Origin: a virus
Direction: 5' to 3' (one strand)
UHGV virus genome: UHGV-0126638
Length of the DNA: 23,813 bases
The translations under genes were made by a program, and so were the position numbers. The notes under the pieces were generated by a model that saw only the letters and a list, made by a program, of their open reading frames with translations, was not told the origin of the DNA and ran no database searches. This document shows, in pieces, positions 50 through 20,985 of the stretch. Every line of letters begins with the position of its first letter. Within the stretch, counting starts at the first letter, position 1.

Positions 50-586
50 ATGCGTCGCGCTAACGATCCGCAACGGCGAGAAAAAATTATCCAGGCCACG
101 CTGGAGGCGGTGAAACTTTACGGAATACATGCTGTTACGCACCGCAAAATTGCTACCCTTGCCGGGGTACCGTTGGGATCGATGACCTACTATTTTTCAG
201 GAATTGATGAGTTGTTACTGGAGGCGTTCAGCAGTTTTACTGAGATCATGTCCCGGCAATATCAGGCATTTTTTAGCGATGTTAGTGATGCTCCGGGCGC
301 ATGCCAGGCTATCACCGATATGATCTACAGCTCACAGGTTGCAACGCCGGATAACATGGAGCTGATGTACCAGCTCTACGCGCTGGCTAGCCGAAAACCG
401 CTATTAAAAACGGTAATGCAAAACTGGATGCAGCGCAGTCAGCAAACGCTCGAACAATGGTTTGAACCCGGAACCGCCCGCGCGCTTGATGCGTTTATTG
501 AGGGGATGACGCTGCATTTTGTCACCGACCGTAAGCCGCTATCGCGCGAGGAGATTTTGAGGATGGTTGAGAGGGTTGCAGGGTAG
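50..586 (+). CDS. rcdA: TetR-family transcriptional regulator RcdA (YbjK)
   Basis: ORF 20..586; translation from internal ATG at 50 ([35 protein letters not shown]...) matches my recollection of E. coli RcdA, with an N-terminal TetR HTH. GAGAGAGGAAA purine-rich stretch upstream of ATG 50. Synteny with ybjL, ybjM and grxA supports the call. Confidence 0.88.
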
Positions 587-602
587 TAGATAAGTTTTAG
601 AT

Positions 603-616
603 AACAAAAAACCCAT
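603..616. repeat. 14-bp perfect direct repeat AACAAAAAACCCAT, left copy; candidate att core (attL)
   Basis: Identical 14-mer at 603-616 and 20986-20999, both outside the phage genes. Each overlaps the A-run and stem start of a hairpin (int terminator on the left, ybjL terminator on the right). Confidence 0.45.
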
Positions 617-631
617 TTATGTAAACGGGTT
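610..631 (-). terminator. Hairpin plus T-run on the minus strand downstream of int; putative int terminator
   Basis: Imperfect inverted repeat AACCCATTTA / TAAACGGGTT (9 of 10 pairs); on the minus strand it is followed by TTTTTTG (complement of 603-609). Confidence 0.4.
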
Positions 632-635
632 AATG

Positions 636-669
636 AAAACAATAAGTTAGATTAAAAACAATAAGTTAG
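636..669. repeat. Tandem 15-bp direct repeat AAAACAATAAGTTAG x2 (636-650 and 655-669) between the candidate core and int
   Basis: Seen directly as two perfect copies 19 bp apart. Position in the int-proximal arm fits integrase arm-type or IHF sites, but that function is inferred. Confidence 0.5.
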
Positions 670-690
670 GTTGGTGGTCAGTGGTGGTTA

Positions 691-1743
691 TTACGGGGTA
701 ATGCCAACCGCTGCCGCCACTTTGTCGCCACTTGGCAGCGTTGCCAGAGGATTGAAACGGAGCGCCGTTTCCAGATGATCCGGTGCCAGATGAGCGTAAC
801 GCATAGTCATTTTTATATCGTGATGTCCGAGGATTTTTTGCAAAGCAAGGATATTTCCACCCGACATCATGAAATGCGCCGCAAACGTATGGCGCAGAAC
901 GTGTGTCAGTTGACCGCGAGGGAGCACGATTGACGTTTTTTCCATCACGGATAAAAATTGAAAATAGCAGTCTGTGAAGAAATTGAACCCATCAAGCGCC
1001 ATGATCTCTTCATAAAGCTCTTTACTGATAGGGATGCTTCTGTTTTTCTTCCCCTTCGTTCTTACAAAGGTAATTCGGTATTTAGTCACCTGTGATCGGG
1101 TAAGGTTTATTGCTTCTCGCCAGCGTGCGCCTGTGCTTAAGCATATCTTGACTACCAGTGCCAGAATTGGGTCCTGACGTTTGCAATCAGCCAGCAGTTC
1201 AACAATCTGCTCATGGGTAAGCCATGCCATCTCTTTTTCTGCGATGGTGAATTTTCGCATGTTCTCCAGTGGGTTTGGATACGACCATTCGCCCAGGCGG
1301 GATAGTTCGCTAAAAACACTACTTAGATAGCTTTGCTCCAGGTTAATGGTGACCGGGCTTGCTCCTTTCTTCCATTTCTCGCTGAAGTAGATCTCACCAG
1401 TCAGGCGTTTATCTCGATAGTGGGCAAACATTTTAGAGGTGAGATCGGTTGCAAGGGGATTGCCCAGAGCGTCAACCATCAACAGCAATTTATCATAGAC
1501 ATGCTGCCCAGCGGTTAGAGATTTACCATGTAGTTTGAACCATAGCTCAACCACGTCTTTCAGTGTTCGACGATCCACTGATTCTCCCAGCCAGGGCTTT
1601 GCTTCGGTTTCTTCCATCGTATGGCGCTCAAAAGCCAGAGCTTCGCCTTTGGTGGCGAATTGTTTACGCACACGACGCCCACTACGTCCGGCGGGGTAAC
1701 ATTCGCAAAGCCATTTTCCTGTGGTGAGTTTTCGTACTGCCAT
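691..1743 (-). CDS. int: Tyrosine integrase, P2/186 family
   Basis: ORF 691..1821; start trimmed to ATG at 1743 (MAVRKLTTGKWLCECYPAGRSGRRVRKQFATKGEALAFERHT...), which parallels the P2 Int N-terminus as I recall it. C-terminal catalytic region motifs LSTGARWREA, HVLRHTFAAHFMMSGG and MRYAHLAP (R, H-x-x-R, Y). GGAGGG Shine-Dalgarno upstream. Confidence 0.9.
   Translation of the reverse strand: MAVRKLTTGKWLCECYPAGRSGRRVRKQFATKGEALAFERHTMEETEAKPWLGESVDRRTLKDVVELWFKLHGKSLTAGQHVYDKLLLMVDALGNPLATDLTSKMFAHYRDKRLTGEIYFSEKWKKGASPVTINLEQSYLSSVFSELSRLGEWSYPNPLENMRKFTIAEKEMAWLTHEQIVELLADCKRQDPILALVVKICLSTGARWREAINLTRSQVTKYRITFVRTKGKKNRSIPISKELYEEIMALDGFNFFTDCYFQFLSVMEKTSIVLPRGQLTHVLRHTFAAHFMMSGGNILALQKILGHHDIKMTMRYAHLAPDHLETALRFNPLATLPSGDKVAAAVGITP
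709..730. repeat. 22-bp direct repeat CGCTGCCGCCA(C/T)TTTGTCGCCA, left copy inside the int 3' end; alternative att core or arm-type site
   Basis: 21 of 22 identity with 20909-20930. The left copy encodes the int C-terminal residues GDKVAAA; the right copy begins directly after the ogr stop codon. Confidence 0.45.
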
Positions 1744-2831: not shown

Positions 2832-3053
2832 ATGAGACCTAACATTTCAATCACTCTTACCACGCCTCATGTGACTATTGAACGCTATAGCGAGCTGACA
2901 GGGCTGTCCATCGATACCATCAATGACATGTTGGCTGACGGACGCCTTATCCGTCACCGTCTGCGCAAAGATAAAAAACGTGAAAAAGTGATGATCAACA
3001 TAGCAGCCATGACCGTTGATGCGCTTTCAGAATGCAATCTAAACCTTAATTAG
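2832..3053 (+). CDS. Apl/Cox-like small DNA-binding protein (excisionase and transcriptional regulator)
   Basis: 73-aa ORF with GAGGA Shine-Dalgarno, first gene of the rightward operon divergent from cI. Position and size match 186 Apl / P2 Cox; sequence identity not verified. Confidence 0.55.
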
Positions 3054-3085
3054 TTCGATTCTGAAATACATCAGAGGCATTGACC

Positions 3086-3595
3086 ATGTTTGATTACCAA
3101 GTTTCCAAACATCCACATTTTGATGAAGCCTGTCGTGCATTCGCATTGCGCCACAACCTAGTGCAACTGGCAGAACGTGCAGGCATGAATGTGCAGATTC
3201 TGCGGAACAAGCTGAACCCAGCTCAACCTCATTTATTAACCGCACCAGAAATCTGGTTGCTTACCGATCTGACTGAAGATTCAACGCTGGTAGATGGCTT
3301 TCTGGCACAGATTCACTGCCTGCCATGTGTACCGATTAATGAGGTGGCAAAAGAGAAACTGCCGCATTACGTCATGAGTGCAACTGCAGAGATAGGGCGT
3401 GTCGCGGCAGGTGCGGTTTCTGGCGATGTAAAAACCAGTGCAGGCCGTCGTGATGCGATCAGCAGCATTAACTCTGTTACACGACTGATGGCGCTGGCTG
3501 CTGTTTCATTGCAGGCCCGTTTACAGGCTAATCCTGCGATGGCGAGTGCAGTTGATACCGTGACTGGCCTCGGTGCTTCATTCGGTTTGCTGTGA
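3086..3595 (+). CDS. Phage 186 CII-like transcriptional activator
   Basis: Translation from ATG 3086 ([45 protein letters not shown]...[28 protein letters not shown]...) closely resembles my recollection of 186 CII (169 aa). AGAGG Shine-Dalgarno 7 nt upstream. Confidence 0.8.
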
Positions 3596-8601: not shown

Positions 8602-8790
8602 ATGCAGGACTATTTTTTGGAGTCTTTGAAGCTCCAGCGCATTGATTTTTTTCTTAAGCTTGTAGCGGCTAGTGAGTGTAGTGATGAAGAGAAGGGGCTG
8701 GCTTTGCAGTGGGTTTCTGAACTGACAGATGAACTCATGGCAAAAATCAGAAGCCACGAATACAACCGCTCAATGGATGTCATCAGCTGA
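8602..8790 (+). CDS. Small protein, possible N-terminal part of a Tum-like antirepressor (62 aa)
   Basis: ATG 8602 with AGGAGG 4 nt upstream, directly downstream of the LexA box. Together with the DinI-like ORF it spans 433 nt, about the size of phage 186 tum (~146 aa) as I recall it. Confidence 0.5.
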   Translation: MQDYFLESLKLQRIDFFLKLVAASECSDEEKGLALQWVSELTDELMAKIRSHEYNRSMDVIS

Positions 8791-8800
8791 GGTGACTTTT

Positions 8801-9034
8801 ATGCGCATTGAAATAATGATCGATAAAGAGCAGAAGATTAGCCAGTCTACCCTGGACGCCCTTGAATCCGAGCTTTACCGCAATCTGCGCCCCCTATATC
8901 CCAAAACGGTAATTCGTATCCGTAAAGGTAGCTCTAACGGTGTGGAACTGACCGGACTGCAACTGGATGAAGAAAGAAAACAAGTGATGAAAATTATGCA
9001 GAAGGTGTGGGAAGACGACAGCTGGCTGCATTGA
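8801..9034 (+). CDS. DinI-family protein (Tum C-terminal-like)
   Basis: Translation from ATG 8801 (MRIEIMIDKEQKISQSTLDALESELYRNLRPLYPK...KIMQKVWEDDSWLH) aligns by eye along its whole length with E. coli DinI. GAGGTGA Shine-Dalgarno 5 nt upstream. Confidence 0.75.
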   Translation: MRIEIMIDKEQKISQSTLDALESELYRNLRPLYPKTVIRIRKGSSNGVELTGLQLDEERKQVMKIMQKVWEDDSWLH

Positions 9035-9087
9035 TTTTGTCAATAGATGCTTGTTTTTAATACTTAAAAAGGGTTACATATGAGTGA

Positions 9088-9121
9088 GAGGTGATGTCAA
9101 TCAGATATCACCTCGTTTTTT
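9088..9121 (+). terminator. Rho-independent terminator after the DinI-like gene
   Basis: Inverted repeat GAGGTGAT...ATCACCTC followed by GTTTTTT. It overlaps the 5' extension of ORF 9091..9825, so that extension is unlikely to be coding. Confidence 0.5.
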
Positions 9122-9147
9122 GTCAAGAAAAGAATAATAGGCTAAAA

Positions 9148-9825
9148 ATGAAAATTAACCATATTGCGTTACCTATATCTCTTGCTGTAATCCTAACTGG
9201 TTGCGTGCCTCATGCTTCTAACCGAAATATCACAGCTATTGAAGTGGTGAAGCCTGCTATTGGGCAAAGTGCTACAGCCTACATGGGCGACCCCATCATA
9301 ACATCTGCTACTGGATATAAAACGGACGTACTAGAGCTTGGTGCGGCTAATGGTGCGCTATCTTCTATCTCTGCAGGTACATATTGCAGCGAAGGGAATG
9401 GAATTTACCGCAATCATCATAATTCTCAAGCTGTTGCGCTAAAAAATATCTATGGACAAATCGGCACCTATGTTGATTATGTAAGTTACGATGCTGCAAA
9501 AAATGAGATATCACCACCAAACGGCACTTCTTATACAGCCTCAGAAATTTCTATCAAGCGTGTTCCTGATGGGCTGTGTCGAGTGAGTAACTCATTGGTT
9601 AAGACTATCGAATACAATGGAAATGCAGGCGGTGTAATGAAGTTTACCTATCGTGAGTTTGCAAACGATATGGCTCGTGCAGCGTTTACAACAGATTTTT
9701 CTGTAGATTCGAAGGGAAGTGATGTTATCGCTTACAAAGGAGCCAAGTTCAAAGTGAACAAGGCTGATAACTCGTCTATTTCCTATACAATTATTTCTGG
9801 CTTTGACAAGGCTGTCACGTTCTAG
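9148..9825 (+). CDS. Lipoprotein of unknown function (moron); possible superinfection-exclusion or surface protein
   Basis: Translation from ATG 9148: MKINHIALPISLAVILTGC, a signal peptide with lipobox LTGC. The mature ~205 aa is rich in S, T, G, N and Y (beta-rich appearance). No homolog recalled. Confidence 0.65.
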   Translation: MKINHIALPISLAVILTGCVPHASNRNITAIEVVKPAIGQSATAYMGDPIITSATGYKTDVLELGAANGALSSISAGTYCSEGNGIYRNHHNSQAVALKNIYGQIGTYVDYVSYDAAKNEISPPNGTSYTASEISIKRVPDGLCRVSNSLVKTIEYNGNAGGVMKFTYREFANDMARAAFTTDFSVDSKGSDVIAYKGAKFKVNKADNSSISYTIISGFDKAVTF

Positions 9826-9929
9826 ATTTCACGCTTGCTGAGTATGTTACGATTTTGCACATTCTGCATAAACGCGCATGTCTATGCTGCATGAGATCGC
9901 ATGATCGTTTGAGGATCTTTTGTGTTAAG

Positions 9930-9954
9930 GCCCGCCAGTTCTGGCGGGCTTTTG
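9930..9954 (+). terminator. Rho-independent terminator downstream of the lipoprotein gene
   Basis: Perfect 9-bp stem GCCCGCCAG / CTGGCGGGC around TT, followed by TTTTG. Confidence 0.55.
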
Positions 9955-9998
9955 CGTAGATCATGCAGGTGCATGAAAACCACTACATAAAGCGGGCA

Positions 9999-10017
9999 GG
10001 CGTGGCGGGGATACGAG
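9999..10017. other. cos-like site (candidate cohesive-end sequence) GGCGTGGCGGGGATACGAG
   Basis: The first 13 nt match the 19-nt cohesive ends of phage 186 (GGCGTGGCGGGGAAAGCAT) and 12 of them P2 (GGCGAGGCGGGGAAAGCAC), as I recall them; the last 6 nt diverge. It is followed by CGCGCGC, as at the P2 left end. Confidence 0.4.
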
Positions 10018-10084
10018 CGCGCGCAACGGGTTGTCATTCAAACTCCAATGCTATAAAACTGTGTAATACAAACAACTAAAGTAG

Positions 10085-11839
10085 GTGGCCTCAGTGGAAC
10101 TGCAAGCAAATGCTCGAACCTTAACAAACGTGTTATCTGTAAATAAAAAATATATAGTCCCTAGATTCCAAAGAGAATATTCTTGGGGGAAGGAACAAGT
10201 AAGTGAACTTTGGCATGATATAGTTTCCAATATTCATTACCAGGAGGATGGGCAGTATCAATATGATGAGTATTTCATCGGTGCTCTCGTTTTGGTCGGG
10301 CAGGAAACTAGCTCTGAGCTGATGATTGTAGATGGTCAACAACGTCTTACGACTCTTACTATATTGTTATCAGCATTATGTGATAAATTTAAGTTGATAA
10401 ATGAGTTGGCTGTAGCTCAATCAATATATAATAATTATATATCTGGTATGGATGACGATGGCAGACCTTTTTTTAAATTAGTTAATGAAACTCCTAAGCC
10501 ATACTTTCAAAACAACATTCAGCATATTGATAAGAGAAATGAAGGACCGGAGTCCCTTGAAGAAAGAAACTTGCAATCTTCATATAATGATTTAACTGAG
10601 TATCTTTCAGAAGATAATCTTTGCCAGACATTAGGAGTAGATAGAGAGAAATTTATCTACTTGGAAGCGTTGAAGGCTGTGCGGGATCAAGTTCTACGGT
10701 ATCTGAAAGTGATTTATATTACAGTTAATGATGAAGATGAAGCTTATACAATCTTTGAAACTCTGAATGCTAGGGGATTAAACTTAAGTTATGTAGATCT
10801 TATAAAAAACAAATTATTTAAGAAACTGAATGGCACACATCCTGATGATGATGCAAAAACTAAATGGAATAAAATTAGGCAAATAATTGCTAGTCGTAAT
10901 GGTGTCGGTTCTATCGAGACATTTATCCGTCATTGGTGGGTGTCAAAATATTCTTATGTAAGTAGTGACACTCTTTATAAAGCTTTTCTGGATAAGTGGA
11001 AAAAAGGCGACATTGATGCTTCAGCGTTCATTGATGAGCTACTTTCAGATGCCGAGATATATGTGAAAATATCATCGCCTACAGAACAGGATTTTCCTGA
11101 ACTGGAAATGAAACCAGTTTATCGAGGTTTGCAGGCATTAAGGCTGTTTAACATATCTCAGAATAAACCATTTTTGTTATCTTTATTTAAGGCAAGAGCA
11201 AGAGGAACGCTAAAACTTGTTGATATGAATAATGCAGTGCTGTCAATTGAACGCTTTCATTTTATGTTTAATGCTATTTGTTCATTGCGACCATCAGGTA
11301 TTGAAAGTGCGTATGCTAAAGCTGCTAGGGCTTTAGTGGATGAAGGTTCTACTAAAGCTAGTAATAGACAAGTAATAAAGTCTTTGCTTGAAATGTTGGT
11401 GAAGAGAAAACCAGACATTAATATGTTTGTTGAAAAGTTTGTTATGCTTAAATTTTCAAATCAAGAGTTGAAAAATAAAAGGTTGATTCAGTACATTTTT
11501 AATAGACTTGAGTTACATCACATGAAAACGGGGGAGTATATGCCTGATTCATTAACATTAGAGCATATTCAGCCTCAGAGTGTGGGGGATTCTGAAGTAT
11601 ATAGCATGATAGGAAATTTATTACCACTTTCAAAAGAATTAAATGAAAAAGCTGGAAATAAGTCTGTTGTGGATAAGCTTGAAATTTATAAACAATCACA
11701 ATATGCGCTAGTTAAAATTTTTATTGATGAATTTGAAAATAAATATCAAGGAGAATGGACGCCCGATCATATGAGGTCAAGAGCTGCTGAACTAAGTATT
11801 TTATCGTATAATTCAGTATGGAAATTGGGGCGTGAGTAA
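10085..11839 (+). CDS. DUF262 (ParB-like, DGQQR) plus DUF1524 (His-Me/HNH-like) protein; GmrSD/BrxU/SspE-type candidate modification-dependent nuclease
   Basis: 584-aa ORF (GTG start at 10085; alternative GTG at 10094 after AGGTGG). N-terminal FQREYSW and DGQQR at codons 83-87 (nt 10331-10345) are DUF262 hallmarks; C-terminal LEHIQPQS...GNLLPLSKELNEKAGNKS is DUF1524-like. The gene is markedly AT-rich compared with flanking phage genes. Confidence 0.75.
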   Translation: MASVELQANARTLTNVLSVNKKYIVPRFQREYSWGKEQVSELWHDIVSNIHYQEDGQYQYDEYFIGALVLVGQETSSELMIVDGQQRLTTLTILLSALCDKFKLINELAVAQSIYNNYISGMDDDGRPFFKLVNETPKPYFQNNIQHIDKRNEGPESLEERNLQSSYNDLTEYLSEDNLCQTLGVDREKFIYLEALKAVRDQVLRYLKVIYITVNDEDEAYTIFETLNARGLNLSYVDLIKNKLFKKLNGTHPDDDAKTKWNKIRQIIASRNGVGSIETFIRHWWVSKYSYVSSDTLYKAFLDKWKKGDIDASAFIDELLSDAEIYVKISSPTEQDFPELEMKPVYRGLQALRLFNISQNKPFLLSLFKARARGTLKLVDMNNAVLSIERFHFMFNAICSLRPSGIESAYAKAARALVDEGSTKASNRQVIKSLLEMLVKRKPDINMFVEKFVMLKFSNQELKNKRLIQYIFNRLELHHMKTGEYMPDSLTLEHIQPQSVGDSEVYSMIGNLLPLSKELNEKAGNKSVVDKLEIYKQSQYALVKIFIDEFENKYQGEWTPDHMRSRAAELSILSYNSVWKLGRE

Positions 11840-11866: not shown

Positions 11867-12916
11867 TCAAAAAGAATCGTTTGTGAAATTTAGGGAGTAG
11901 GCATCAAAGCGTATTGCTTCTTCGCCTAGCCAATAGTTAAGTTCTTGTAGCTGTTTCTGCAGGGGCATCAGTTCGTTGCGGACAAAAACACGACTAGCCT
12001 TCTCCACATCACCAAAGCCCCCAACATTATTAGGCATTATCCCCATCATTTGCGGCGGCACACGATGCGCCGCCATCATGTCGTCCCGGCTCACGTTCTT
12101 GATATTCAGGAACTCATCCTTCGCCGCCACTTCTGACAACGGGATAATCTGAAGCCCATCCTTTTTGCCGTTAGGCGAGTACATAAACAGGTTACGGAAG
12201 TTACCAGGACCTTTGGCACTTTTCATTGCGTTGCGGAGGTTGTTCACATCCTCCTGGTTCTGCGCGGCGTCGGTCATGTACATGATGAAGCCCGCATGGC
12301 TGCCGTTGATGTAATACTTCCGGCGGAACAGCGTGGCGGACTCGTTGAGCAGGGCTGACGGAATGGCAGAAAGATAACCGGGCAGGCCGTAGATCTCCTG
12401 GTTGATGTCCGGCTCCATCAGATGAAAAATGCTGCCTTTCGTGAACTGATACGGCTGGGTTGTCATACCGTATTGCACAAACCAGTAGGTATCCAGGTCT
12501 AACCCGCGTCGGGTGTATTTTGCCAGAGCAGGCTCAAGGGCTATAACTTCACCGAAGCGGTTCGTGCGTTTCTCCAGGTAGGCGTTACCAAAAACCAGAT
12601 AGTCCTGTACAAAACGCGAAAAAGCCTGCTGGCTGAGCAGCGGGTGAGGGATGTAGGTGCTGGTCAGAATGTTGCACTTTACTGCAATCGGGGAACTATG
12701 ATGAACGGCAGCGCGGAAGGTGCGCGCCAGTCCGTCAAAGCTGACGGGCGGCTCATACCAGCGGTCCATCTGTACGCATTCCACATAATCCAGCAGTTCT
12801 CGGCGGTCCAGAACAGGAACGGGATCGCCGAAGCTGAATGCTTCGGCTGTAGTTTGACTTTTAAGCTGGATCTGTTTCGTCGCCGCAGCGCGGTTCTTCT
12901 TACTCTTTCCCATCAA
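11867..12916 (-). CDS. Q: Portal protein, P2 gpQ family
   Basis: 349 aa, leftward, overlapping the start of the terminase gene as in P2. N-terminus MMGKSKKNRAAATK... and size match P2 Q as I recall it. Confidence 0.88.
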   Translation of the reverse strand: MMGKSKKNRAAATKQIQLKSQTTAEAFSFGDPVPVLDRRELLDYVECVQMDRWYEPPVSFDGLARTFRAAVHHSSPIAVKCNILTSTYIPHPLLSQQAFSRFVQDYLVFGNAYLEKRTNRFGEVIALEPALAKYTRRGLDLDTYWFVQYGMTTQPYQFTKGSIFHLMEPDINQEIYGLPGYLSAIPSALLNESATLFRRKYYINGSHAGFIMYMTDAAQNQEDVNNLRNAMKSAKGPGNFRNLFMYSPNGKKDGLQIIPLSEVAAKDEFLNIKNVSRDDMMAAHRVPPQMMGIMPNNVGGFGDVEKASRVFVRNELMPLQKQLQELNYWLGEEAIRFDAYSLNFTNDSF

Positions 12917-14679
12917 AAAATCTCCACAATATTGCTGGTATTGGCGGATTCGCCCTGCAGCGGTTCGTTAAACAGTGCGTGCATCGTTGCCCAGGCCAGA
13001 TCGGCGTGGCTGGCTTCTTCGCTGCGGCTGGCTTCATAGGTCGGGCGGTTGCCACTGGCGGTGGTGGCGCGACGGATCGCCATAAAGGACTGCGCTATGT
13101 CGGTGTGTCCGGCGTCAAACTCCAGACGGCGGTGGCTGATAATGTCGTAGGCCTTGAGTACCAGGGCGTTTTTAACGTTGGGGTTGTAGACAAACTCCCG
13201 GACGGCAGGAAAAAACGCTTTCACGTTCTCGTAAACCCCGTGACCAACGCCGGTTGAGTCGATACCGATATAGGTCACGTTGTACTGTTCGGTCAGTTTT
13301 TTGATGGCGTCAGCCTGGGCGCGGAAGTCCATTCCGCGCCACTGGTGACGCTCAAGAATGCGGAACTTACCGCCCGGCACGACTGGCGGCGCCACCACCA
13401 CGCATCCGGCGCTGTCGCCGTTCTGCGTACCTTTCGCCGGGTCATATCCGATCCACACTTCGCGCCAGCCAAACGGGCGCAGGGCCAGTGCATGAAAGTC
13501 GGTCCAGACTTCCCAACTGTCCACCATGCACGCCTGCAGCTCGCTGAGCGGGAACACAGACGCGAGATCGTCCACGAACTCACACATCAGCAGGTTCTGG
13601 TATTCGTCCGGGCTGTACTCCATGCGCAACTGGTCGAGGTCGAACAGGTTACAGCCGCCGCGCACCGCATCTTCCACAGTGACTATCTGGCGGTACTGCC
13701 CGTCTGCGCACAGCAGGCCGGGGGCCAGATTGCTGTGGGACAGGTCGATGTCCACCTTATCGGCTTTGTTGCGCCCTCGGTTGAACAGCGCACCGGACCA
13801 GAACGGATAAGCACTGTGTGTCAGGCTGGATGGCGTGGAAAAATAGGTTTGTCGCCATTTTTTGTGAATAGCCATACCGGAAGCCACTTTGCGCAGCTCC
13901 TGGAATTTCGGTATCCAGAAATATTCATCCAGATACAGGTTGCCGTGGTAACTCTGGGCCGTGCGGGCATTGGTGCCGAGGAAGTACAGCGTGGCCCCGT
14001 TAGGAAGCACCATCGGATCGCCTTTCAGCTCCACCTCCACTTCTTTGGCGAAGTCGATGATGTACTGCTTAAAGACGTGGGCCTGAGCCTTGCTGGCGGA
14101 AAGGAAAATCTGGTTACGTCCGGTTAGCAGGGCGTCAATCAGGGCTTCACGGGCAAAATAGAAGGTCGCGCCGATCTGGCGTGACTTCAGCAGGTTGCGG
14201 ATGCGGTTGGTTTTTCCGGCTTCCCACCAGTGGCGCTGGTAGTTGAACATGGAGGAATGGAAGATTTCTTCCAGCTTCTCAATCTGTTCATCGGTGAAAA
14301 CGTTCTTTTCCGGCTGACGGCGCGGGCCTTTGTTGCGGTTGGCGACGTTAGGGTTTAAGTCGGCTTCGTTGCCGCCATTGTTAAACTTGCCGATCCGCGC
14401 ATGGCGCTCCGACTGGCGCGCCAGCAGGTCAATCTCTTTGAAATCTTTCCCTTCTTTGTGCTCCTTCATAATGAGCTGGCAGTAGCGTGCGGCGGTGGTG
14501 AGCTGCATCTGATCTAGCGGCCCATAGTCACCCCACTTGTCGCGTTTTTTCCAGCTGTGAACGGTTGCAACTTTCTCGCCCAGCATTTCAGCAATGCGGG
14601 CTACGCGGTATCCCTGAAAGTACAGCAGCATGGCCTGCCGACGGGGATCGAGATCTGCGGGTGTCAGTGTGGTGTTCAT
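12913..14679 (-). CDS. P: Terminase large (ATPase) subunit, P2 gpP family
   Basis: 588 aa, leftward, divergent from O as in P2. A Walker A-like motif (LLKSRQIGAT) is present; size is close to P2 gpP. Confidence 0.88.
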   Translation of the reverse strand: MNTTLTPADLDPRRQAMLLYFQGYRVARIAEMLGEKVATVHSWKKRDKWGDYGPLDQMQLTTAARYCQLIMKEHKEGKDFKEIDLLARQSERHARIGKFNNGGNEADLNPNVANRNKGPRRQPEKNVFTDEQIEKLEEIFHSSMFNYQRHWWEAGKTNRIRNLLKSRQIGATFYFAREALIDALLTGRNQIFLSASKAQAHVFKQYIIDFAKEVEVELKGDPMVLPNGATLYFLGTNARTAQSYHGNLYLDEYFWIPKFQELRKVASGMAIHKKWRQTYFSTPSSLTHSAYPFWSGALFNRGRNKADKVDIDLSHSNLAPGLLCADGQYRQIVTVEDAVRGGCNLFDLDQLRMEYSPDEYQNLLMCEFVDDLASVFPLSELQACMVDSWEVWTDFHALALRPFGWREVWIGYDPAKGTQNGDSAGCVVVAPPVVPGGKFRILERHQWRGMDFRAQADAIKKLTEQYNVTYIGIDSTGVGHGVYENVKAFFPAVREFVYNPNVKNALVLKAYDIISHRRLEFDAGHTDIAQSFMAIRRATTASGNRPTYEASRSEEASHADLAWATMHALFNEPLQGESANTSNIVEIF

Positions 14680-14725
14680 GGCACAAACCTACAGCCTTGA
14701 ATGAAGGCTTTCCCCGCCTGCGGTT

Positions 14726-14743
14726 TGTGTGGTTGTCGGTACA
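14726..14743. promoter_or_regulatory. TGT-N12-ACA dyad in the P/O divergent region; candidate Ogr-dependent late promoter element
   Basis: TGTGTGGTTGTCGGTACA seen directly. The dyad type and spacing match the activator site of P2 late promoters; it sits about 80 bp upstream of the O start codon. Confidence 0.4.
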
Positions 14744-14821
14744 AATACCGCGCATTGTTTCACTGCCCCCATCACCGCAACCATAAGGCTCCAGTAAGTT
14801 TTTTCTAACGGAGCACGGCTC

Positions 14822-15655
14822 ATGACAGTGAAAGCAAAGCGTTTTCGCATCGGGGTGGAAGGTGCCACCACCGACGGACGCGAAATCCAGCGTGAATGGC
14901 TGGAACAGATGGCAGCCAGCTACAACCCGGCGGTGTATACCGCGCTGATTAACCTTGAGCACATCAAGTCTTATCTGCCGGACAGCACCTTTAACCGCTA
15001 CGGCAAGGTGACGGCGCTGTTTGCTGAAGAAATCACGGAAGGTCCGCTGGCAGGCAAGATGGCGCTGTATGCCGACGTTGAGCCAACGGAGTCCCTGGTG
15101 GAACTGGTGAAAAAAGGCCAGAAATTATTCACCTCTATGGAAGTCAGCCCGAAGTTCGCTGATACGGGCAAAGCCTACCTGGTCGGCCTGGCTGCTACTG
15201 ATGACCCTGCCAGTCTGGGTACGGAAATGCTGACATTCAGCGCCAGTGCAGCCCATAACCCGCTGGCAAACCGCAAGCAGAATCCTGCCAATCTCTTTAC
15301 CGCTGCAGAGGAAACGGTGATCGAACTGGAAGAAATCCAGGACGACAAACCGTCCCTGTTTGCCCGCGTCACGGCGCTGTTTACCAAAAAAGAGCAGTCC
15401 GATGACGCCCGGTTCTCTGATGTGCATAAGGCCGTGGAGCTGGTCGCCACTGAGCAGCAGAACCTGAGTGCACGCACCGAAAAATCCCTGTCTGAGCAGG
15501 AAGAACGCCTGTCTGAGCTGGAGACTGCCCTGCAGGCACAGCAAACCGCCTTTAACGAACTGGTGGACAAGCTGAGTCATGAAGACAGTCGCCAGGACTA
15601 CCGCCAGCGTGCAACAGGCGGTAACGCCCCCGCTGACACTCTGACCAATTGCTGA
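14822..15655 (+). CDS. O: Capsid scaffolding protein, P2 gpO family
   Basis: 277 aa, first gene of the rightward late operon, with a C-terminal coiled-coil-like region; position and size match P2 O. Confidence 0.85.
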   Translation: MTVKAKRFRIGVEGATTDGREIQREWLEQMAASYNPAVYTALINLEHIKSYLPDSTFNRYGKVTALFAEEITEGPLAGKMALYADVEPTESLVELVKKGQKLFTSMEVSPKFADTGKAYLVGLAATDDPASLGTEMLTFSASAAHNPLANRKQNPANLFTAAEETVIELEEIQDDKPSLFARVTALFTKKEQSDDARFSDVHKAVELVATEQQNLSARTEKSLSEQEERLSELETALQAQQTAFNELVDKLSHEDSRQDYRQRATGGNAPADTLTNC

Positions 15656-15671
15656 TGGAGCACAAAACCCG

Positions 15672-16730
15672 ATGAAGAAGAATACCCGCTTTGCTTTTAA
15701 CGCTTACCTGCAGCAGCTGGCGCGTCTGAACGGTGTGGCAGTTGAAGAACTGTCCAGCAAGTTCACCGTGGAGCCGTCTGTGCAGCAGACGCTGGAAGAC
15801 CAGATCCAGCAGTCCGCCGCTTTCCTGACGCTGATTAACGTCACGCCAGTGACTGAGCAGTCCGGTCAGCTGCTGGGGCTGGGTGTTGGCAGCACCACTG
15901 CCGGAACCACTGACACCACCGCGAAAGAGCGTGAACCTGTCGATCCGACGCTGATGGTCGATGTGGAATATAAATGCGAGCAGACCAACTTTGACACGGT
16001 GCTGACCTACGCGAAGCTGGACCTGTGGGCGAAGTTTAAGGATTTCCAGGTGCGTATCCGTGACGCCATCGTGAAACGTCAGGCACTGGACCGCATCATG
16101 ATCGGCTTTAACGGCGTGAAGCGTGCGAAAACCTCCAACCGTAGTGAAAACCCGCTGCTGCAGGATGTGAACAAAGGCTGGCTGCAGAAAATCCGTGAGG
16201 ATGCACCGGATCACGTCATGGGCAGCACCACCACGGGCGGCGAAACCACACCGGGTGCGGTGAAAGTCGGGAAAGGTGGCGAATATGCCAACCTGGACGC
16301 TGTGGTGATGGATGCGGTCAATGAGCTTATCGACGTGGTCTACCAGGACGATGACGATCTGGTGGTGATTTGCGGTCGTGAACTGCTGTCTGACAAGTAT
16401 TTCCCGCTGGTCAACAAAGAGCAGGAAAACAGTGAAAAATTGGCAGCCGATATGATTATCAGTCAGAAACGCATGGGCGGTCTGCAGGCCGTGCGTGCGC
16501 CGTTCTTCCCGCCGAATGCGCTGCTGATCACCCGTCTGGATAACTTGTCCATCTACTGGCAGGAAGACACCCGCCGCCGTTCAGTTATCGACAACCCGAA
16601 ACGTGACCGGATTGAAAATTTTGAATCCGTTAACGAAGCCTACGTGGTTGAGGACTACCGCTGCGCCGCACTGGTGGAAAACATCCAGATTGGCGACTTC
16701 AGCGCCGCCGCAGCAGAAACCGGAGCGTAA
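15672..16730 (+). CDS. N: Major capsid protein, P2 gpN family
   Basis: 352 aa; the N-terminus MKKNTRFAFNAYLQQLARLNGV... and many internal segments (KFTVEPSV, GFNGVKRA, GKGGEYANLDA, ISQKRMG, NLSIYWQ, VVEDY) parallel P2 gpN as I recall it. Confidence 0.9.
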   Translation: MKKNTRFAFNAYLQQLARLNGVAVEELSSKFTVEPSVQQTLEDQIQQSAAFLTLINVTPVTEQSGQLLGLGVGSTTAGTTDTTAKEREPVDPTLMVDVEYKCEQTNFDTVLTYAKLDLWAKFKDFQVRIRDAIVKRQALDRIMIGFNGVKRAKTSNRSENPLLQDVNKGWLQKIREDAPDHVMGSTTTGGETTPGAVKVGKGGEYANLDAVVMDAVNELIDVVYQDDDDLVVICGRELLSDKYFPLVNKEQENSEKLAADMIISQKRMGGLQAVRAPFFPPNALLITRLDNLSIYWQEDTRRRSVIDNPKRDRIENFESVNEAYVVEDYRCAALVENIQIGDFSAAAAETGA

Positions 16731-16733
16731 TTC

Positions 16734-17384
16734 ATGAGCCTGAGTCCCGCACGGCAGCATCGCCTGCGCGTTCAGGCTGAACAGGCCGCTCGCGAGGGTG
16801 GCAGTGTTCGCCACGCGTCGGGCTATGACCTGATGCTGCTGCAACTGGCGGAAGACCGCCGCCGTCTCAAGGGCGTTCAGTCCACGGTCAAAAAAGCGGA
16901 AATCAAAGTGGAGCTGCTGCCGAAGTACGCCGCCTGGGCAGAGGGTGTCCTGGCTGCCGGAGGCGCTCAACAGGATGACGTGCTGATGTACGTGATGCTG
17001 TGGCGCATTGATGCCGGAGATTATGCCGGGGCGCTGGAGATCGGGCGTCATGCCCTGCGTCATGGCTGGGTGATGCCGCTGGGTAACCGCAACGTGCAGA
17101 CCGTGCTGGCAGAGGAAATGGCAGATGCAGCGCAGAGCGCAATGCTTGCCGCAACCGGCTTTGATGCCGATCTGTTGCTGCAGACGCTGGAGCTGACAGA
17201 CGGTCTGGATATGCCGGACCAGTCACGGGCGCGTCTGCATAAAGCGATTGGCGCTGTCCTGAGTGAAAGCAATCCGGCTTCCGCCCTTAATCATCTCAAC
17301 CATGCGTTACAGCTCGATCCCCGCTGTGGCGTGAAAAAAGACAAACAGCAGCTGGAGCGCAGACTGCGCAATGACAGCCGCTGA
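16734..17384 (+). CDS. M: Terminase small (endonuclease) subunit, P2 gpM family
   Basis: 216 aa immediately after N; conserved segments (LRHASGYDLML, GAQQDDVLMYVMLWRIDAGDYAGALEIGRHAL) resemble P2 gpM. Confidence 0.82.
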   Translation: MSLSPARQHRLRVQAEQAAREGGSVRHASGYDLMLLQLAEDRRRLKGVQSTVKKAEIKVELLPKYAAWAEGVLAAGGAQQDDVLMYVMLWRIDAGDYAGALEIGRHALRHGWVMPLGNRNVQTVLAEEMADAAQSAMLAATGFDADLLLQTLELTDGLDMPDQSRARLHKAIGAVLSESNPASALNHLNHALQLDPRCGVKKDKQQLERRLRNDSR

Positions 17385-17479
17385 CAGAACGTGCCCCCGC
17401 GCACGGGCGGCACGGGGTGGCGAAAGGCACAGCCACATCAAAACCCCGTCCACCGCCCTCTATCTCAGGAGAAAGCAGC

Positions 17480-17761
17480 ATGAAGTTTGTTGCGCCAGAA
17501 CAGGCACCGGAACAGGCGGAAATCATCAGAAATACGCCGTTCTGGCCTGATGTGGACCTGTCGGAGTTTCGCAGTGTCATGCGCACTGACGGCACGGTGA
17601 CGCAGCCGCGTTTAAAGCAGGTTGCGCTGTCGGCAATTTCGGAGGTTAACGCAGAGCTGTATGAGTTTCGCAGACGCCAGCAGATGCTGGGGTATGCGTC
17701 GCTGGCTGAGGTTCCGGCGGAACAGCTGGACGGGAAAAGTGAGCGCATTTCCGAAGCCTGA
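17480..17761 (+). pseudogene. L: Head completion protein gpL, C-terminally truncated
   Basis: Start at ATG 17480 with AGGAGAAAG upstream; NTPFWPDVDL...AELYEFR...LAEVPAEQLDG parallels the P2 gpL N-terminal half. The ORF ends at about 93 aa against about 169 aa for P2 gpL as I recall it. Confidence 0.6.
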
Positions 17762-17952
17762 CTGACAGTATTGATACCAGCACCCCAATGGGTCGTTTCT
17801 TTTTTCATGTCATGGGGGCCCTGGCTGAAATGGAACGCGAACTGATAGTTGAACGTACCATGGCAGGGCTGGCTGCAGCTCGTGCCAAAGGCAGAGTAGG
17901 TGGACGCCGTCCTAAGTTGACCACCGAACAGTGGGCACAGATTGGGCGTTTA
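17746..17952 (+). pseudogene. Internal fragment of a Hin/Gin/Pin-type serine DNA invertase gene (about 69 codons)
   Basis: The frame translating HFRSLTDSIDTSTPMGRFFFHVMGALAEMERELIVERTMAGLAAARAKGRVGGRRPKLTTEQWAQIGRL matches the central-to-C-terminal region of Hin-family invertases nearly residue for residue. The catalytic N-terminus and the C-terminal HTH are both absent. Confidence 0.7.
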
Positions 17953-19020
17953 TCCGGTTTACGTGCTGTTGCTGTGATGTTTATGAATCCTCTGGCGGTA
18001 CTGCGCGGTGGACTGGCCGCCGCAGGCACGGTGCTGCGAGTACTGGCATCTGGTCCACTGGCGATGCTGCGCGTTGCCCTGTATGCCATATCTGGTCTGT
18101 TAGGTGCTCTGCTCAGTCCGATAGGTCTTGTGGTTACTGCACTGGCGGGCGTGGCGCTGGTTGTTTGGAAATACTGGCAACCCATCACCGCATTTCTCGG
18201 TGGCGTGGTGGAAGGATTCAAAGCTGCGGCAGGTCCCATCAGTGCAGCGTTCGAACCGCTTAAGCCCGTGTTCCAGTGGATTGGCGACAAAGTGCAGGCG
18301 CTGTGGGGCTGGTTTACTGATCTGCTGACGCCCGTTAAGTCGACCTCTGCCGAACTGCAGAGCGCAGCGGCAATGGGGCGACGATTCGGGGAGGCACTGG
18401 CAGAAGGGCTGAATATGGTCATGCATCCGCTGGACTCCCTGAAATCCGGCGTTTCCTGGTTGCTGGAGAAACTCGGCATTGTCAGTAAAGAGGCTGCAAA
18501 GGCGAAACTGCCGGAAAGCGTGACGCGTCAGCAACCTGCGACGGTGAATGCAGACGGTAAAGTGATGATGCCATCGGGTGATTTTCCGTCATGGGGATAT
18601 GGCTTTGCGGGGATGTATGACAGCGGCGGCTATATCCCGCGCGGGCAGTTTGGCATCGTCGGTGAAAACGGGCCGGAAATTGTTAACGGCCCGGCAAACG
18701 TGACCAGCCGGAGAAATACAGCTGCACTGGCTGCCGTTGTCGCCGGAATGATGGGTGTTGCTGCCGCGCCAGCAGAGCTTCCACCGTTGCATCCTTTGGC
18801 GCTTCCCGCAAAAGGCGGTGAAGCGATGGTGAGTCGTGCAGCTACTGTGCCGCCCATTTACCGGATTGAAGCACCGACGCAGATCATCATCCAGACACAG
18901 CCAGGACAAAGTGCGCAGGATATTGCGCGGGAGGTGGCCCGCCAGCTTGATGAACGTGAACGCAGGCTGAAGGCAAAAGCCAGGAGTAACTACAGCGATC
19001 AGGGGGGATACGACGCATGA
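17953..19020 (+). pseudogene. T: C-terminal portion of the tail tape-measure gene (gpT-like), fused in frame to the invertase fragment
   Basis: Continues the same ORF (17788..19020) into Ala/Gly/Leu-rich sequence typical of tape-measure proteins and ends overlapping the gpU start. The N-terminal part of T and all upstream tail genes are absent. Confidence 0.6.
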
Positions 19021-19502
19021 TGATGGTGCTGGGATTGTACGTGTTTATGCTGCGCACCGTGCCGTATCAGGAGCTGCAGTATCAACGCAGCTGGCGACAT
19101 GCGGCAAACAGCCGGGTAAACCGACGTCCGTCCACGCAGTTTCTGGGACCGGACAACGACATGCTGACGCTTTCCGGTGTTCTTATGCCGGAGATAACAG
19201 GTGGCAGGCTGTCGTTGCTGGCACTGGAGCAGATGGCAGAACAGGGGAAAGCATGGCCCCTGATTGAAGGCAGTGGCACGATTTATGGCATGTATGTGAT
19301 TGAGGGACTGAATCAGACTAAAACGGAGTTTTTCCGCGACGGTATGCCGCGCCGGATTGAGTTCACCCTGTCGCTCAAACGGGTGGATGAATCCCTGTCC
19401 GATATATTCGGTGATCTCAGTGCGCAACTGAATAATCTGCAGGACACAGCAACGTCTGCCTTAAGCGATATCAGTAAAACGGTGGGAGGGCTGCTGTCAT
19501 GA
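19017..19502 (+). CDS. U: Tail protein, P2 gpU family
   Basis: 161 aa, between the tape-measure remnant and D; size and order as in P2. Confidence 0.8.
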   Translation: MMMVLGLYVFMLRTVPYQELQYQRSWRHAANSRVNRRPSTQFLGPDNDMLTLSGVLMPEITGGRLSLLALEQMAEQGKAWPLIEGSGTIYGMYVIEGLNQTKTEFFRDGMPRRIEFTLSLKRVDESLSDIFGDLSAQLNNLQDTATSALSDISKTVGGLLS

Positions 19503-20599
19503 ATTTCAGCTCTGAACTGCTTAACAAAGGCAACAAAACTCCCGCATTCAGCATCAGTATTGAGGGCAGGGATATCACCACTGTGCTGGATAACCGCCTG
19601 ATGAGTTTGACGCTGACGGACAATCGGGGCTTTGAAGCGGACCAGCTTGATCTGGAGCTGGACGACGCCGACGGAAAAATCGTGCTGCCGCGCCGTGGTG
19701 CGGTTATTACGCTGGCGCTGGGCTGGAAGGGGCAGCCGCTTTTCCCGAAAGGGGCATTCACGGTGGACGAGATTGAACACACTGGCGCACCGGACCGCCT
19801 GACTATCCGGGCGCGAAGTGCTGATTTTCGTGAAACGCTGAATACCCGCCGTGAAAAGTCGTGGCACAAGACCACCGTCGGGGAAGTGGTGAAGGAAATA
19901 GCTGTGCGGCACAAACTGAAGATGGCATTGGGTAAAGACCTGTCAGATAAACCCGTGGAACATATAGACCAGACCAATGAGAGTGACGGCAGTTTTCTGA
20001 TGCGGCTGGCGCGCCAGTACGGTGCTATTGCGTCGGTGAAAAATGGCAATCTGTTATTCATCCGGCAGGGACAGGGTAAAAGCGCCAGCGGTAAACCACT
20101 ACCGGTTATCACTATCACACGTAAGGACGGCGACAGTCACCGCTTTACCCTGGCAGATCGCGGAGCCTACACGGGCGTAATTGCCAGCTGGTTGCATACC
20201 CGCGAACCCGCGAAGAATGAAAGCACCACGGTGAAGCGTAAGCGCAGGACTAAGAAGCAGAAGAAAGAGCCGGAAGCGAAGCAGGGCGATTACCTGGTGG
20301 GTACAGATGAAAACGTGCTGGTACTTAATCGCACCTATGCCAACCGGAGCAACGCCGAACGGGCGGCGAAAATGCAGTGGGAACGCCTGCAACGCGGCGT
20401 TGCGTCATTCTCGCTACAACTGGCAGAAGGTCGGGCAGATCTCTACACGGAAATGCCAGTGAAAGTCAGTGGCTTTAAACAGCCGATAGATGATGCGGAA
20501 TGGACCATTACGACTCTGACGCATACCGTCAGCCCCGATAACGGTTTTACAACCAGTCTGGAGCTTGAAGTGAGGATTGATGATTTCGAAATGGAATGA
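19499..20599 (+). CDS. D: Tail protein, P2 gpD family
   Basis: 366 aa, immediately upstream of ogr; size and order as in P2. Confidence 0.8.
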   Translation: MNFSSELLNKGNKTPAFSISIEGRDITTVLDNRLMSLTLTDNRGFEADQLDLELDDADGKIVLPRRGAVITLALGWKGQPLFPKGAFTVDEIEHTGAPDRLTIRARSADFRETLNTRREKSWHKTTVGEVVKEIAVRHKLKMALGKDLSDKPVEHIDQTNESDGSFLMRLARQYGAIASVKNGNLLFIRQGQGKSASGKPLPVITITRKDGDSHRFTLADRGAYTGVIASWLHTREPAKNESTTVKRKRRTKKQKKEPEAKQGDYLVGTDENVLVLNRTYANRSNAERAAKMQWERLQRGVASFSLQLAEGRADLYTEMPVKVSGFKQPIDDAEWTITTLTHTVSPDNGFTTSLELEVRIDDFEME

Positions 20600-20689
20600 T
20601 TCTTCGCAATGGAGAACTTTTAAGTTTGCAAAATGGAATAATGCGGTATCATTATTGTGAATTTAGCAAAAATGGGGAGAACTCGAAAA

Positions 20690-20908
20690 ATGATGATTTG
20701 CCCACTGTGTGGAAGTGCCGCCCATACTCGCAGCAGTTTTCAGGTATCTTCATTGACCAAAGAACGTTACAACCAGTGCCAGAACATTAACTGCAGCCAT
20801 ACTTTTGTTACCCATGAAACTTTTGTTCGTTCGATTGCAACGCCAAAAGAGTCAAATCCGGTTCAGCCGCATCCAATGAAATCAGGACAGGTGGCGCTCT
20901 CTCTTTGA
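20690..20908 (+). CDS. ogr: Ogr/Delta-family zinc-finger late transcription activator
   Basis: Translation from ATG 20690 (MMICPLCGSAAHTRSSFQVSSLTKERYNQCQNINCSHTFVTHETF...) has the C-x2-C ... C-x4-C pattern and strongly resembles P2 Ogr (72 aa). GGGGAGA Shine-Dalgarno upstream. Confidence 0.88.
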   Translation: MMICPLCGSAAHTRSSFQVSSLTKERYNQCQNINCSHTFVTHETFVRSIATPKESNPVQPHPMKSGQVALSL

Positions 20909-20930
20909 CGCTGCCGCCATTTTGTCGCCA
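20909..20930. repeat. 22-bp direct repeat, right copy, immediately after the ogr stop
   Basis: CGCTGCCGCCATTTTGTCGCCA; 21 of 22 identical to 709-730. Confidence 0.45.
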
Positions 20931-20985
20931 TCGTTAAAAAACAGTGTTTCTAACATCATGATTTTAAACAGCTTAAATTTCAGGC

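Follow-up and report, generated by a model that had tools for sequence, protein, structure and literature searches.

Coliphage 186 carries its attachment site in the order late activator, attP, int, cI, apl, cII, with CGCCAYT-type arm repeats and IHF sites flanking the core on both sides, and its target is the tRNA-Ile gene ileY, a small stable RNA gene that it enters at the 3' end and that is rebuilt upon integration. The published arm-site consensus for 186-type integrases is tgccGCCActt (PMC3448106), and the 186 RefSeq record annotates YAYCGCCAYTY either side of the core, with the arm sites labelled 'predicted'. Relative to the annotated crossover, the P-arm pair of 186 starts at -126/-115 and the right arm units at +103/+114, with an IHF-like site at +27 and an annotated IHF footprint from +34 to +63. 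The attP of P2 is built on the same overall logic: its core has a pair of direct arm repeats on each flank, and IHF and a Cox/Apl-type factor take part.

The sRNA gene rybB is a known integration site for P2-like phages (PMC3032704, PMC4048246, PMC10121019). Prophages at this same rcdA-adjacent site include PhiECO1 (DuoHS) in E. coli HS, PhiECO2 and PhiECO3 in CFT073, the Rybb* prophages in E. coli W, B and Crooks, and the retron-Ec67 and retron-Ec86 prophages. The HS phage re-lysogenizes a strain with a reconstituted attB (PMC12055606). The rybB site was occupied in ~20% of complete E. coli genomes.

We analyzed a 23,813-nucleotide stretch of DNA from the virus genome UHGV-0126638 (hereafter, the window; Table 1). 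It contains a defective prophage that is P2-like overall and has an integration and immunity module of the phage-186 type, including genes for a 186-type CI (2137-2712) and a 186-type CII (3080-3595). Lysis and tail genes amounting to 11.6 kb have been lost from this copy, and its cargo differs from that of the PhiECO, Rybb* and retron relatives. The prophage sits between rcdA and ybjL, having been integrated by Int, through site-specific recombination, at the 3' end of rybB. We consider it highly probable that this picture holds as a whole, with a 14-bp repeat as the crossover core, a pair of 22-bp repeats as Int arm sites and two 15-bp repeats most likely as IHF sites. The arrangement is ordinary, and integration of P2-like phages into rybB has already been published.

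The window resembles 186 in its gene order, in having predicted arm repeats and putative IHF sites to either side of the core, in the comparable distances of its right arm units and IHF-like site, and in entering a small stable RNA gene at its 3' end such that the gene is rebuilt. It differs in the gene targeted (rybB rather than ileY), in the length of the shared core (14 bp versus 36 bp), in the start of the P-arm pair (-74) and in having no recognizable Apl-type operators, its directionality factor being barely Apl-like. P2 is unlike the window in its arm consensus (tgTGGaCa), in its Int N-terminus and in its target, which is not an RNA gene.

Table 1 Positions of the attachment-site elements, phage genes and host flanks in the window
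Feature	Position	Strand	Basis and details
rcdA, host gene, left flank	50-586	+	Annotation of matching E. coli genomes
attL junction, 26-bp imperfect repeat	591-616		Host-type 591-602, then perfect core copy; same as empty site through base 616
attL core copy AACAAAAAACCCAT	603-616		On the minus strand, U-tract and 3' stem bases of the int terminator
int terminator	603-631	-	Terminator scan; hairpin 631-610 (phage DNA and core), then core T-run, tail TTTTGTTATC
Two 15-bp direct repeats, proposed H'1 and H'2	636-669	+	Each with IHF-consensus-like AAACAATAAGTTA (637-649, 656-668), 12/13 match
Spacer between IHF-like sites and P' arm pair	670-711	+	TGGTGGTCA/TGGTGGTTA (672-680, 682-690), direct repeats 10 bp apart
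int, intact gene for a 186-type tyrosine integrase (350 aa)	691-1743	-	Pfam Int_N and Phage_integrase; 56% identity to 186 Int
P' arm, two tandem 11-bp units TGCCGCCACTT, TGTCGCCACTT	712-733	+	Units 712-722 and 723-733; the first-pass 22-mer moved by 3 bp; perfect and one-mismatch consensus matches
Apl/Cox-like gene, 73 aa, first in early operon	2832-3053	+	Adjoins 186-type CI and CII
ogr, late-gene activator, last phage gene before P arm	20690-20908	+	Pfam Ogr_Delta; RefSeq annotation of an identical genome
P arm, two tandem arm-type units TGCCGCCATTT, TGTCGCCATCG	20912-20933	+	Units 20912-20922 and 20923-20933; just after ogr
IHF-consensus-like site AATCATGATGTTA in P arm, proposed H	20951-20963	-	Start at -35 from core
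attR junction	20974-20999		12 bp phage-type TAAATTTCAGGC, then core copy 20986-20999; same as empty site from 20986 on
rybB sRNA gene, intact at attR	20986-21064	-	Rfam RF00110, 105.3 bits, model 1-79/79; last 14 nt are the core; fold
ybjL, host gene, right flank	21144-22829	-	Matching E. coli genomes

The crossover core and its target gene

The first-pass annotation had left the attachment core ambiguous between two pairs of direct repeats, with whichever was not the core acting as an arm-type element. Both pairs exist as it described them: the 14-mer AACAAAAAACCCAT occurs without mismatch at 603-616 and 20986-20999, and the 22-mer CGCTGCCGCCACTTTGTCGCCA (709-730) differs from CGCTGCCGCCATTTTGTCGCCA (20909-20930) at a single position. 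Alignment with an unoccupied rcdA-ybjL region, the check it had suggested, decided between them. Empty sites from E. coli W60 and K-12 read ...TTTTAGAT-AACAAAAAACCCAT-CAACCTTG..., with the 14-mer present once and the 22-mer absent, and in a three-way alignment the identity of attL with attB changes to identity of attR with attB exactly across the 14-mer. The attP of KP12 is one continuous stretch running ogr, 22-mer, 14-mer, 15-mers, 22-mer, int, so that the 22-mers flank a single 14-mer; the attPs of ev129 and ev040 likewise contain the 14-mer once, and the window carries it at both junctions. The 14-mer is the crossover core: strand exchange took place within AACAAAAAACCCAT, because this is the sole stretch common to attB, attP, attL and attR.

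Extended leftward, the 14-mer becomes an imperfect 26-bp repeat (591-616 versus 20974-20999, 22/26 identical). Megablast searches with both junctions covered 5,426 E. coli genomes; matches to empty sites ended at 616 on the left and began at 20974 or 20986 on the right. A passage in PMC7826664, citing Hsu 1990, gives 26-bp direct repeats at the flanks of the retron-Ec67 element, which equal the imperfect repeat of the window in length, this being a comparison of length alone. The Klebsiella rybB prophages (Kpn38RybB, 4LV2017 and KP12) have an int region 95-97% identical to that of the window and the same core, arms and spacing, and in the record of phage 4LV2017 the annotated attL and attR have this core. 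In Klebsiella, attL and attR are identical over 19 bp (CAGGC plus the 14-mer) compared to 14 bp in E. coli.

Judged by repeat statistics, the 22-bp pair is far the stronger of the two. A 22-mer pair with at most one mismatch arose in 0 of 100 randomizations, whereas an exact repeated 14-mer is unremarkable in 23.8 kb (at least one in 66% of Markov-1 random sequences); the window itself contains four distinct exact repeats of at least 14 bp (six overlapping 14-mers). The 14-mer alone is therefore not statistically significant, and its significance comes solely from its position exactly at both host/phage junctions. The copies of the 22-bp pair are also close to the element's two ends, and the pair could on these grounds be taken as the recombination core, with the 14-mer accessory or due to chance and the last five int codons at attL derived from the host. 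However, K-12 and the 3.3-kb empty-site locus both lack the 22-mer, two 22-mers occur together in the attPs of KP12, ev129 and ev040, and host homology stops at the 14-mer, 93 bp from the left 22-mer and 55 bp from the right one. The empty-site and attP sequences thus refute a 22-bp core, to which we assign practically no probability, and int is wholly phage-encoded. What is gained is chiefly a correct annotation: the 22-bp repeat, though conspicuous, is unfit for delimiting the element, and the prophage boundaries are 603-616 and 20986-20999. Caution is needed in repeat-based delimitation of prophages, where the statistically strongest flanking repeat may be an internal pair of arm sites and the true core may be so short that it looks like chance.

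The hairpin overlapping the right core copy, previously ascribed to ybjL, is actually the terminator of rybB, based on the Rfam match and on the K-12 annotation, which places rybB at the equivalent position. In biological terms, the phage thus targets the 3' end of rybB and not an intergenic spacer. The RybB model runs to base 20986, where the attR core copy starts, and the full-length gene is restored at this one junction. On the minus strand the core reads AUGGGUUUUUUGUU, which in the RybB terminator forms the U-tail and the 3' half of the stem. A simple terminator scan found none at the right junction because the RybB terminator loop is longer than the scan allows; Rfam and folding identified it instead. 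In RefSeq, the occupied genomes have no annotated rybB and so give no confirmation. The target to be annotated is an envelope-stress sRNA gene that is still intact after integration. Recombination at this core rebuilds a complete rybB at attR and retains a complete int terminator at attL.

Transferring the landmarks of 186 (right arm units and IHF-like site) to the window places the start of the crossover at 609-610, inside the 14-mer. This geometry suggests that the 6-8-bp overlap starts at ~609-610; inspection of the core for inverted repeats that would narrow it gave nothing convincing.

Arm-type repeats and IHF-consensus-like sites

Both 22-mers are phage DNA, because they are absent from the W60 and K-12 empty sites and flank the single 14-mer in the KP12 attP. 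Each side of the core carries two direct arm-type repeats resembling tgccGCCActt and YAYCGCCAYTY. Scanning the window with the consensus returned 712-722 as the sole perfect match, and matches with at most one mismatch included 723-733 and 20912-20922; the fourth unit, TGTCGCCATCG, matches poorly at its 3' end.

The positions of all att elements are conserved. In four attPs (window, KP12, ev129 and ev040), the arm pairs start at -74/-63 and +109/+120 relative to the core, with DNA left of the P arm that is unrelated (17-35% identity) and spacers that are 46-65% identical between the three diverged lineages. The E. coli HS prophage shares its core, IHF-like sites and P' arm pair with the window, and its Int is 99% identical but without the C-terminal tail of 13 codons. 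Unlike the window, it has an additional gene between the P' pair and int, and the pair, now outside int, is still found at +109, so that its position is conserved in five sequences. By homology with the 186-type system, the 22-mers are predicted to be bound as arm sites by the N-terminal domain of Int; of the two pairs, that on the P arm follows ogr directly, and that on the P' arm overlaps the dispensable last codons of int.

An alternative is that the 22-mers are conserved without an arm role for Int, either through coding constraint on int at the left and chance or a relic at the right, or as sites for the Apl/Cox-like factor or CI. The left copy does overlap int codons in the window: of the last 13 (SGDKVAAAVGITP), the P' arm units encode SGDKVAA and the adjoining spacer encodes AVGITP. 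The arm sites of 186 itself are annotated as predicted only. Coding constraint is ruled out by E. coli HS, in which the pair keeps its distance to the core outside int. Moreover, the P-arm pair is non-coding and occupies exactly the same position in three lineages whose flanks are unrelated, the units fit the 186-type integrase consensus, and the N-terminal residues of Int correspond (W11/E14/Y16, the same in 186, compared with Y11/D14/R16 in P2). The early-promoter region, the expected place of Apl/Cox or CI sites, contains no copy of the motif. We therefore regard a role other than Int binding as very unlikely. With the 22-mers taken as arm sites, comparison of the attPs gives a natural attP of ~205 bp (-74 to +130), a definition of use to users of the integrase that leaves the understanding of the system unchanged.

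Between the core and the P' arm, the 15-mer AAAACAATAAGTTAG occurs at 636-650 and 655-669. An earlier description of these as a tandem repeat was right in position and in the repeat itself, but the copies are not strictly head-to-tail, having a period of 19 bp and a 4-bp spacer. Matches to the IHF consensus of at least 12/13 start at -35, +34 and +53 from the core, and these positions are kept across diverged attPs. The two P' matches (+34 and +53) are found in all attPs, including those of ev129 and ev040 with ~65%-identical spacers and that of E. coli HS, while the -35 match recurs on the same strand with 0-1 mismatches in KP12, ev129 and ev040, with spacers 46-54% identical between the KP12/window, ev129 and ev040 lineages. 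Across the window, such matches are not significantly enriched (29 found versus 23 expected). It is by conserved position, not by number, that the 15-mers are most likely a putative IHF-site pair on the P' arm, with binding proposed by homology. The two P' sites and one P site would bend the arms so that arm-bound Int reaches the core, as in 186, P2 and lambda.

The 15-mers might instead be sites for the Apl/Cox-like factor, or additional Int sites, a reading that we find unlikely but give some weight: the directionality-factor sites of 186 are also direct repeats between the core and the P' arm, and the lack of window-wide enrichment of IHF-like matches counts in its favor. Nonetheless, the 19-bp spacing departs from the 10-11 bp typical of directionality factors, and the early-promoter region has no related motif. 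In ev129 and ev040, the IHF-consensus positions (CAA-N4-TTR) are kept while the remainder of the 15-mer diverges, and the IHF-like site and annotated footprint of 186 fall at a place equivalent to the 15-mers.

The candidate directionality factor and the int 3' end

The 73-aa Apl/Cox-like protein is presumed to be the recombination directionality factor. It is 63% identical to the 'Cox' of ev040, has only marginal similarity to 186 Apl and has no Pfam family. Based on its position compared with the five Apl sites of 186, the 670-711 spacer is a candidate binding region for this factor. A search for directionality-factor sites common to attP and the early-promoter region gave none that were convincing, the one motif to emerge, TGGTGKTYA (at 672, 682 and 2762), being a post hoc and weak count that is absent from the ev129 and ev040 attP spacers and from the equivalent ev040 regions.

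At the left junction, the int-terminator hairpin of the first-pass annotation was recovered by both the terminator scan and folding (-9 kcal/mol, z = -2.6), and the KP12 attP contains it as well. The phage's own 14 nt form the end of this terminator and are identical to the 3' end of RybB, and the int mRNA is predicted to end in AUGGGUUUUUUGUU after the hairpin, in the free phage and at attL alike. These 14 nt, common to the 3' ends of int mRNA and the Hfq-dependent RybB, could conceivably make the int 3' end an Hfq-binding element or a source of a 3'-derived sRNA, tying Int to the envelope-stress sRNA network or setting it in competition with that network, an idea that we consider extremely improbable. 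In the simpler view, a terminator-compatible core is all that the phage needs.

Core identity and site occupancy

The first-pass annotation offered two repeat pairs flanking the prophage, a 14-mer and a 22-mer, as possible recombination cores, and all of its repeats were found where it had placed them (Table). We ran the alignment it had proposed, with an unoccupied rcdA-ybjL region. Empty sites in E. coli W60 and K-12 MG1655 read ...GGGTAGTAGATAAGTTTTAGAT-AACAAAAAACCCAT-CAACCTTGAACC... and contained the 14-mer once in 3.3 kb, within which no 22-mer was found. The attL junction matched attB through the end of the 14-mer and attR matched it from the 14-mer onward, while in phage KP12, where D, ogr and int are uninterrupted, attP consists of a single 14-mer flanked by a 22-mer on either side. 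Together, these results identify the 14-mer as the att core, assign both 22-mers to the phage and leave int with no host-derived codons. Of the two options, a 14-mer core with an arm-type 22-mer was thus upheld, and a 22-mer core with the end of int coming from the host was ruled out, since the 22-mers are absent from both empty sites and both are present in the KP12 attP. The record of the Klebsiella rybB phage 4LV2017 independently places both its attL and its attR on this core.

Host-type AT at 601-602 versus phage-type GC at 20984-20985, with the sequence switch at 617/21000, confines strand exchange to these 14 bp. Judging from geometry, with phage 186 landmarks mapped onto positions 637, 712 and 723, the crossover would start at 609-610, within the 14-mer.

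Both junctions were also searched by megablast in a set of 5,426 complete E. coli genomes. The left junction (query 300-1100) was matched by 5,423 genomes, with ~4,360 aligning no further than position 616 and 1,062 also covering the int side. The right junction (query 20600-21400) mirrored this, with empty-site matches beginning at 20974 or 20986 and 1,115 genomes occupied. By these searches, the site is occupied in about 20% of complete E. coli genomes.

Table. Coordinates of attachment-site, integrase, target and cargo features
Feature	Position	Strand	Remarks
14-mer AACAAAAAACCCAT	603-616 and 20986-20999		exact repeat
22-mer pair	709-730 and 20909-20930		one mismatch
15-mer AAAACAATAAGTTAG	636-650 and 655-669		period 19 bp
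26-bp imperfect repeat	591-616 and 20974-20999		22/26; 14-mer is its 3' part
Terminator-like hairpin, then T-run	631-610	minus	
int	691-1743	minus	Pfam Int_N + Phage_integrase
Arm units TGCCGCCACTT and TGTCGCCACTT	712-733		P' arm
Arm units TGCCGCCATTT and TGTCGCCATCG	20912-20933		P arm
rybB sRNA	20986-21064		full-length; Rfam RF00110, 105.3 bits, model 1-79/79
DinI-like protein	8729-9034		cargo
244-aa protein	9091-9825		cargo; no family match
584-aa GmrSD-type (DUF262/DUF1524) enzyme	within 8729-11839		cargo; matches PADLOC candidate defence family HEC-06, E = 4e-90

The rybB target and its terminators

In K-12, the sRNA gene rybB is annotated on the minus strand between rcdA and ybjL. By the Rfam match, the gene has its 3' end at base 1 of the core copy in attR. 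The core thus makes up the final 14 nt of rybB, AUGGGUUUUUUGUU, and supplies the 3' half-stem and U-tail of the RybB terminator. The right-hand hairpin had been mislabelled a ybjL terminator; the Rfam match and fold assign it to RybB. Because the same 14 nt complete the phage int terminator, in attP and at attL, integration preserves both terminators and a complete rybB. No rybB feature was annotated in the RefSeq records of two inspected occupied genomes.

Integration of P2-like phages into rybB is already documented, and the system in the window is a standard, described 186-type integration module. Examples include the Rybb* prophages of E. coli W, B and Crooks (PMC3032704) and E. coli hotspot #29, whose occupants are exclusively Felsduovirus prophages (PMC10121019); Nilsson et al. 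grouped the HS, ATCC 8739, CFT073 and S. Typhi prophages by this shared site and catalogued their arm repeats (PMC3448106). For the retron-Ec67 element, flanking direct repeats of 26 bp have been reported (PMC7826664, citing Hsu 1990); the imperfect repeat here has this length too.

In phage 186, the predicted lysogenic-operon terminator region (L008 1926-1958) is GGCAACAAAAAGGCC, resembling GGCAACAAAAAACCC at the rybB-type core, which hints that the core of rybB-type phages evolved from an ancestral int-operon terminator. Identity between attL and attR spans 19 bp in Klebsiella (CAGGCAACAAAAAACCCAT; L003 1-30, L010 33415-33445) compared to 14 bp in E. coli (window 591-616, 20974-20999), and the left core flank of the phage is closer to the sequence downstream of Klebsiella rybB than to that of E. 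coli.

Predicted arm-type and accessory sites

Each 22-mer is really two 11-bp units. Phages of the 186 type have at least two direct arm repeats per core side, with consensus tgccGCCActt (Nilsson et al. 2011; PMC3448106), and in the RefSeq entry for 186, three arm-type Int sequences (consensus YAYCGCCAYTY) are marked to the left of the core and two to its right. In a motif scan of the window, the sole perfect consensus match was at 712-722, and matches with at most one mismatch included 723-733 and 20912-20922. We then footprinted reconstructed attPs of the window, KP12, ESSI2_ev129 and ev040 (Int of the latter two 86% identical). In each of the four, the arm pairs begin exactly at -74/-63 and +109/+120 relative to the core, although spacers among the three diverged lineages are only 46-65% identical and the 60 nt that precede the P pair show no relationship (17-35% identity), with cargo genes replacing ogr. 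We read the 22-mers as pairs of predicted arm-type Int recognition sites, for which positional conservation is stronger evidence than the consensus match. Among Markov-1 randomisations of the window, 66% contained a repeated exact 14-mer but 0 of 100 a 22-mer pair with at most one mismatch, so chance behaviour is opposite for the two. The one lesson that transfers concerns method: here the arm-site pair, rather than the core, was statistically the strongest of the flanking repeats.

The E. coli HS prophage (PhiECO1/DuoHS) is functional and can again lysogenise a cured strain in which attB has been reconstituted (PMC12055606). Its Int is 99% identical to the window Int, yet an extra 270-bp ORF separates int from the arm pair and attP (in the region L011 1122-1474). 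Since the HS pair lies outside int but still at +109, with divergence from the window starting right after the second unit, int coding is ruled out as the cause of 22-mer conservation. The window Int ends in a 13-residue tail, SGDKVAAAVGITP (694-735), of which SGDKVAA is encoded by arm units and AVGITP by the adjoining spacer; missing from the Int of the functional HS phage, it looks dispensable. These natural breakpoints set the limits of attP at about -74 and +130. Left of the P arm, ev129 and ev040 (L006 377-994, L007 75-2130) carry genes annotated as serine acetyltransferase, acyltransferase and helicase-like protein rather than ogr, making the attP-proximal position another cargo slot in the lineage.

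Window and 186 Int are 56% identical and share N-terminal residues W11/E14/Y16 (Y11/D14/R16 in P2), positions that have been suggested to separate arm recognition of the 186 type from that of the P2 type (PMC3448106); the adjoining CI and CII are likewise of 186 type.

Inside each 15-mer lies AAACAATAAGTTA, matching the IHF consensus WATCAANNNNTTR at 12/13 positions. Such matches showed no window-wide enrichment (29 found, 23 expected). Matches of at least 12/13 occur at +34 and +53 (plus strand) and -35 (minus strand) in 4/4 attPs, and at +34 and +53 in HS; in diverged phages, the surviving 15-mer bases are IHF-consensus bases. A further 12/13 match, TATCTAAAACTTA (591-603, minus strand), lies in host DNA directly left of the core, and hence in attB and attL, and may be due to chance. 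In phage 186, IHF footprints flank the core and five Apl sites lie in the stretch from core to right arm; by motif scan, an IHF-like site starts at +27 from the annotated 7-bp crossover and the right arm units at +103/+114. Directionality-factor sites were not identified in the window beyond a post hoc pattern, TGGTGKTYA (672, 682, 2762), not conserved in ev040. TGGTGGTCA and TGGTGGTTA form direct repeats 10 bp apart in the P' arm (672-690), and TGGTGTTCA lies in the early-promoter region (2762-2770). The pattern, derived from three of its five matches (0.45 expected), is a possible but unproven recognition motif of the 73-aa Apl/Cox-like protein.

Prophage decay and cargo

The prophage is defective: in place of an 11.6-kb stretch that in the intact 33.5-kb relative 4LV2017 begins inside gene L, ends inside gene T and holds the lysis, baseplate, tail fibre, sheath and tube genes, it has only about 200 bp (17750-17949; flanks 11955-17749 and 17950-21099). 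These 200 bp match an internal segment (~26.7 kb) of other Klebsiella P2-like phages at 99% identity, and they encode the last part of a serine-recombinase (resolvase/invertase) domain, joined in frame with the gpT C-terminus (ORF 17788-19020). Cargo (8729-11839) sits between replication gene A and portal gene Q, a slot that holds a retron reverse transcriptase in relatives. An even more decayed remnant, with an attR side identical to the window, is found in E. coli 504239 (L012 1-300), where a capsid-gene fragment adjoins a gene D fragment just before ogr.
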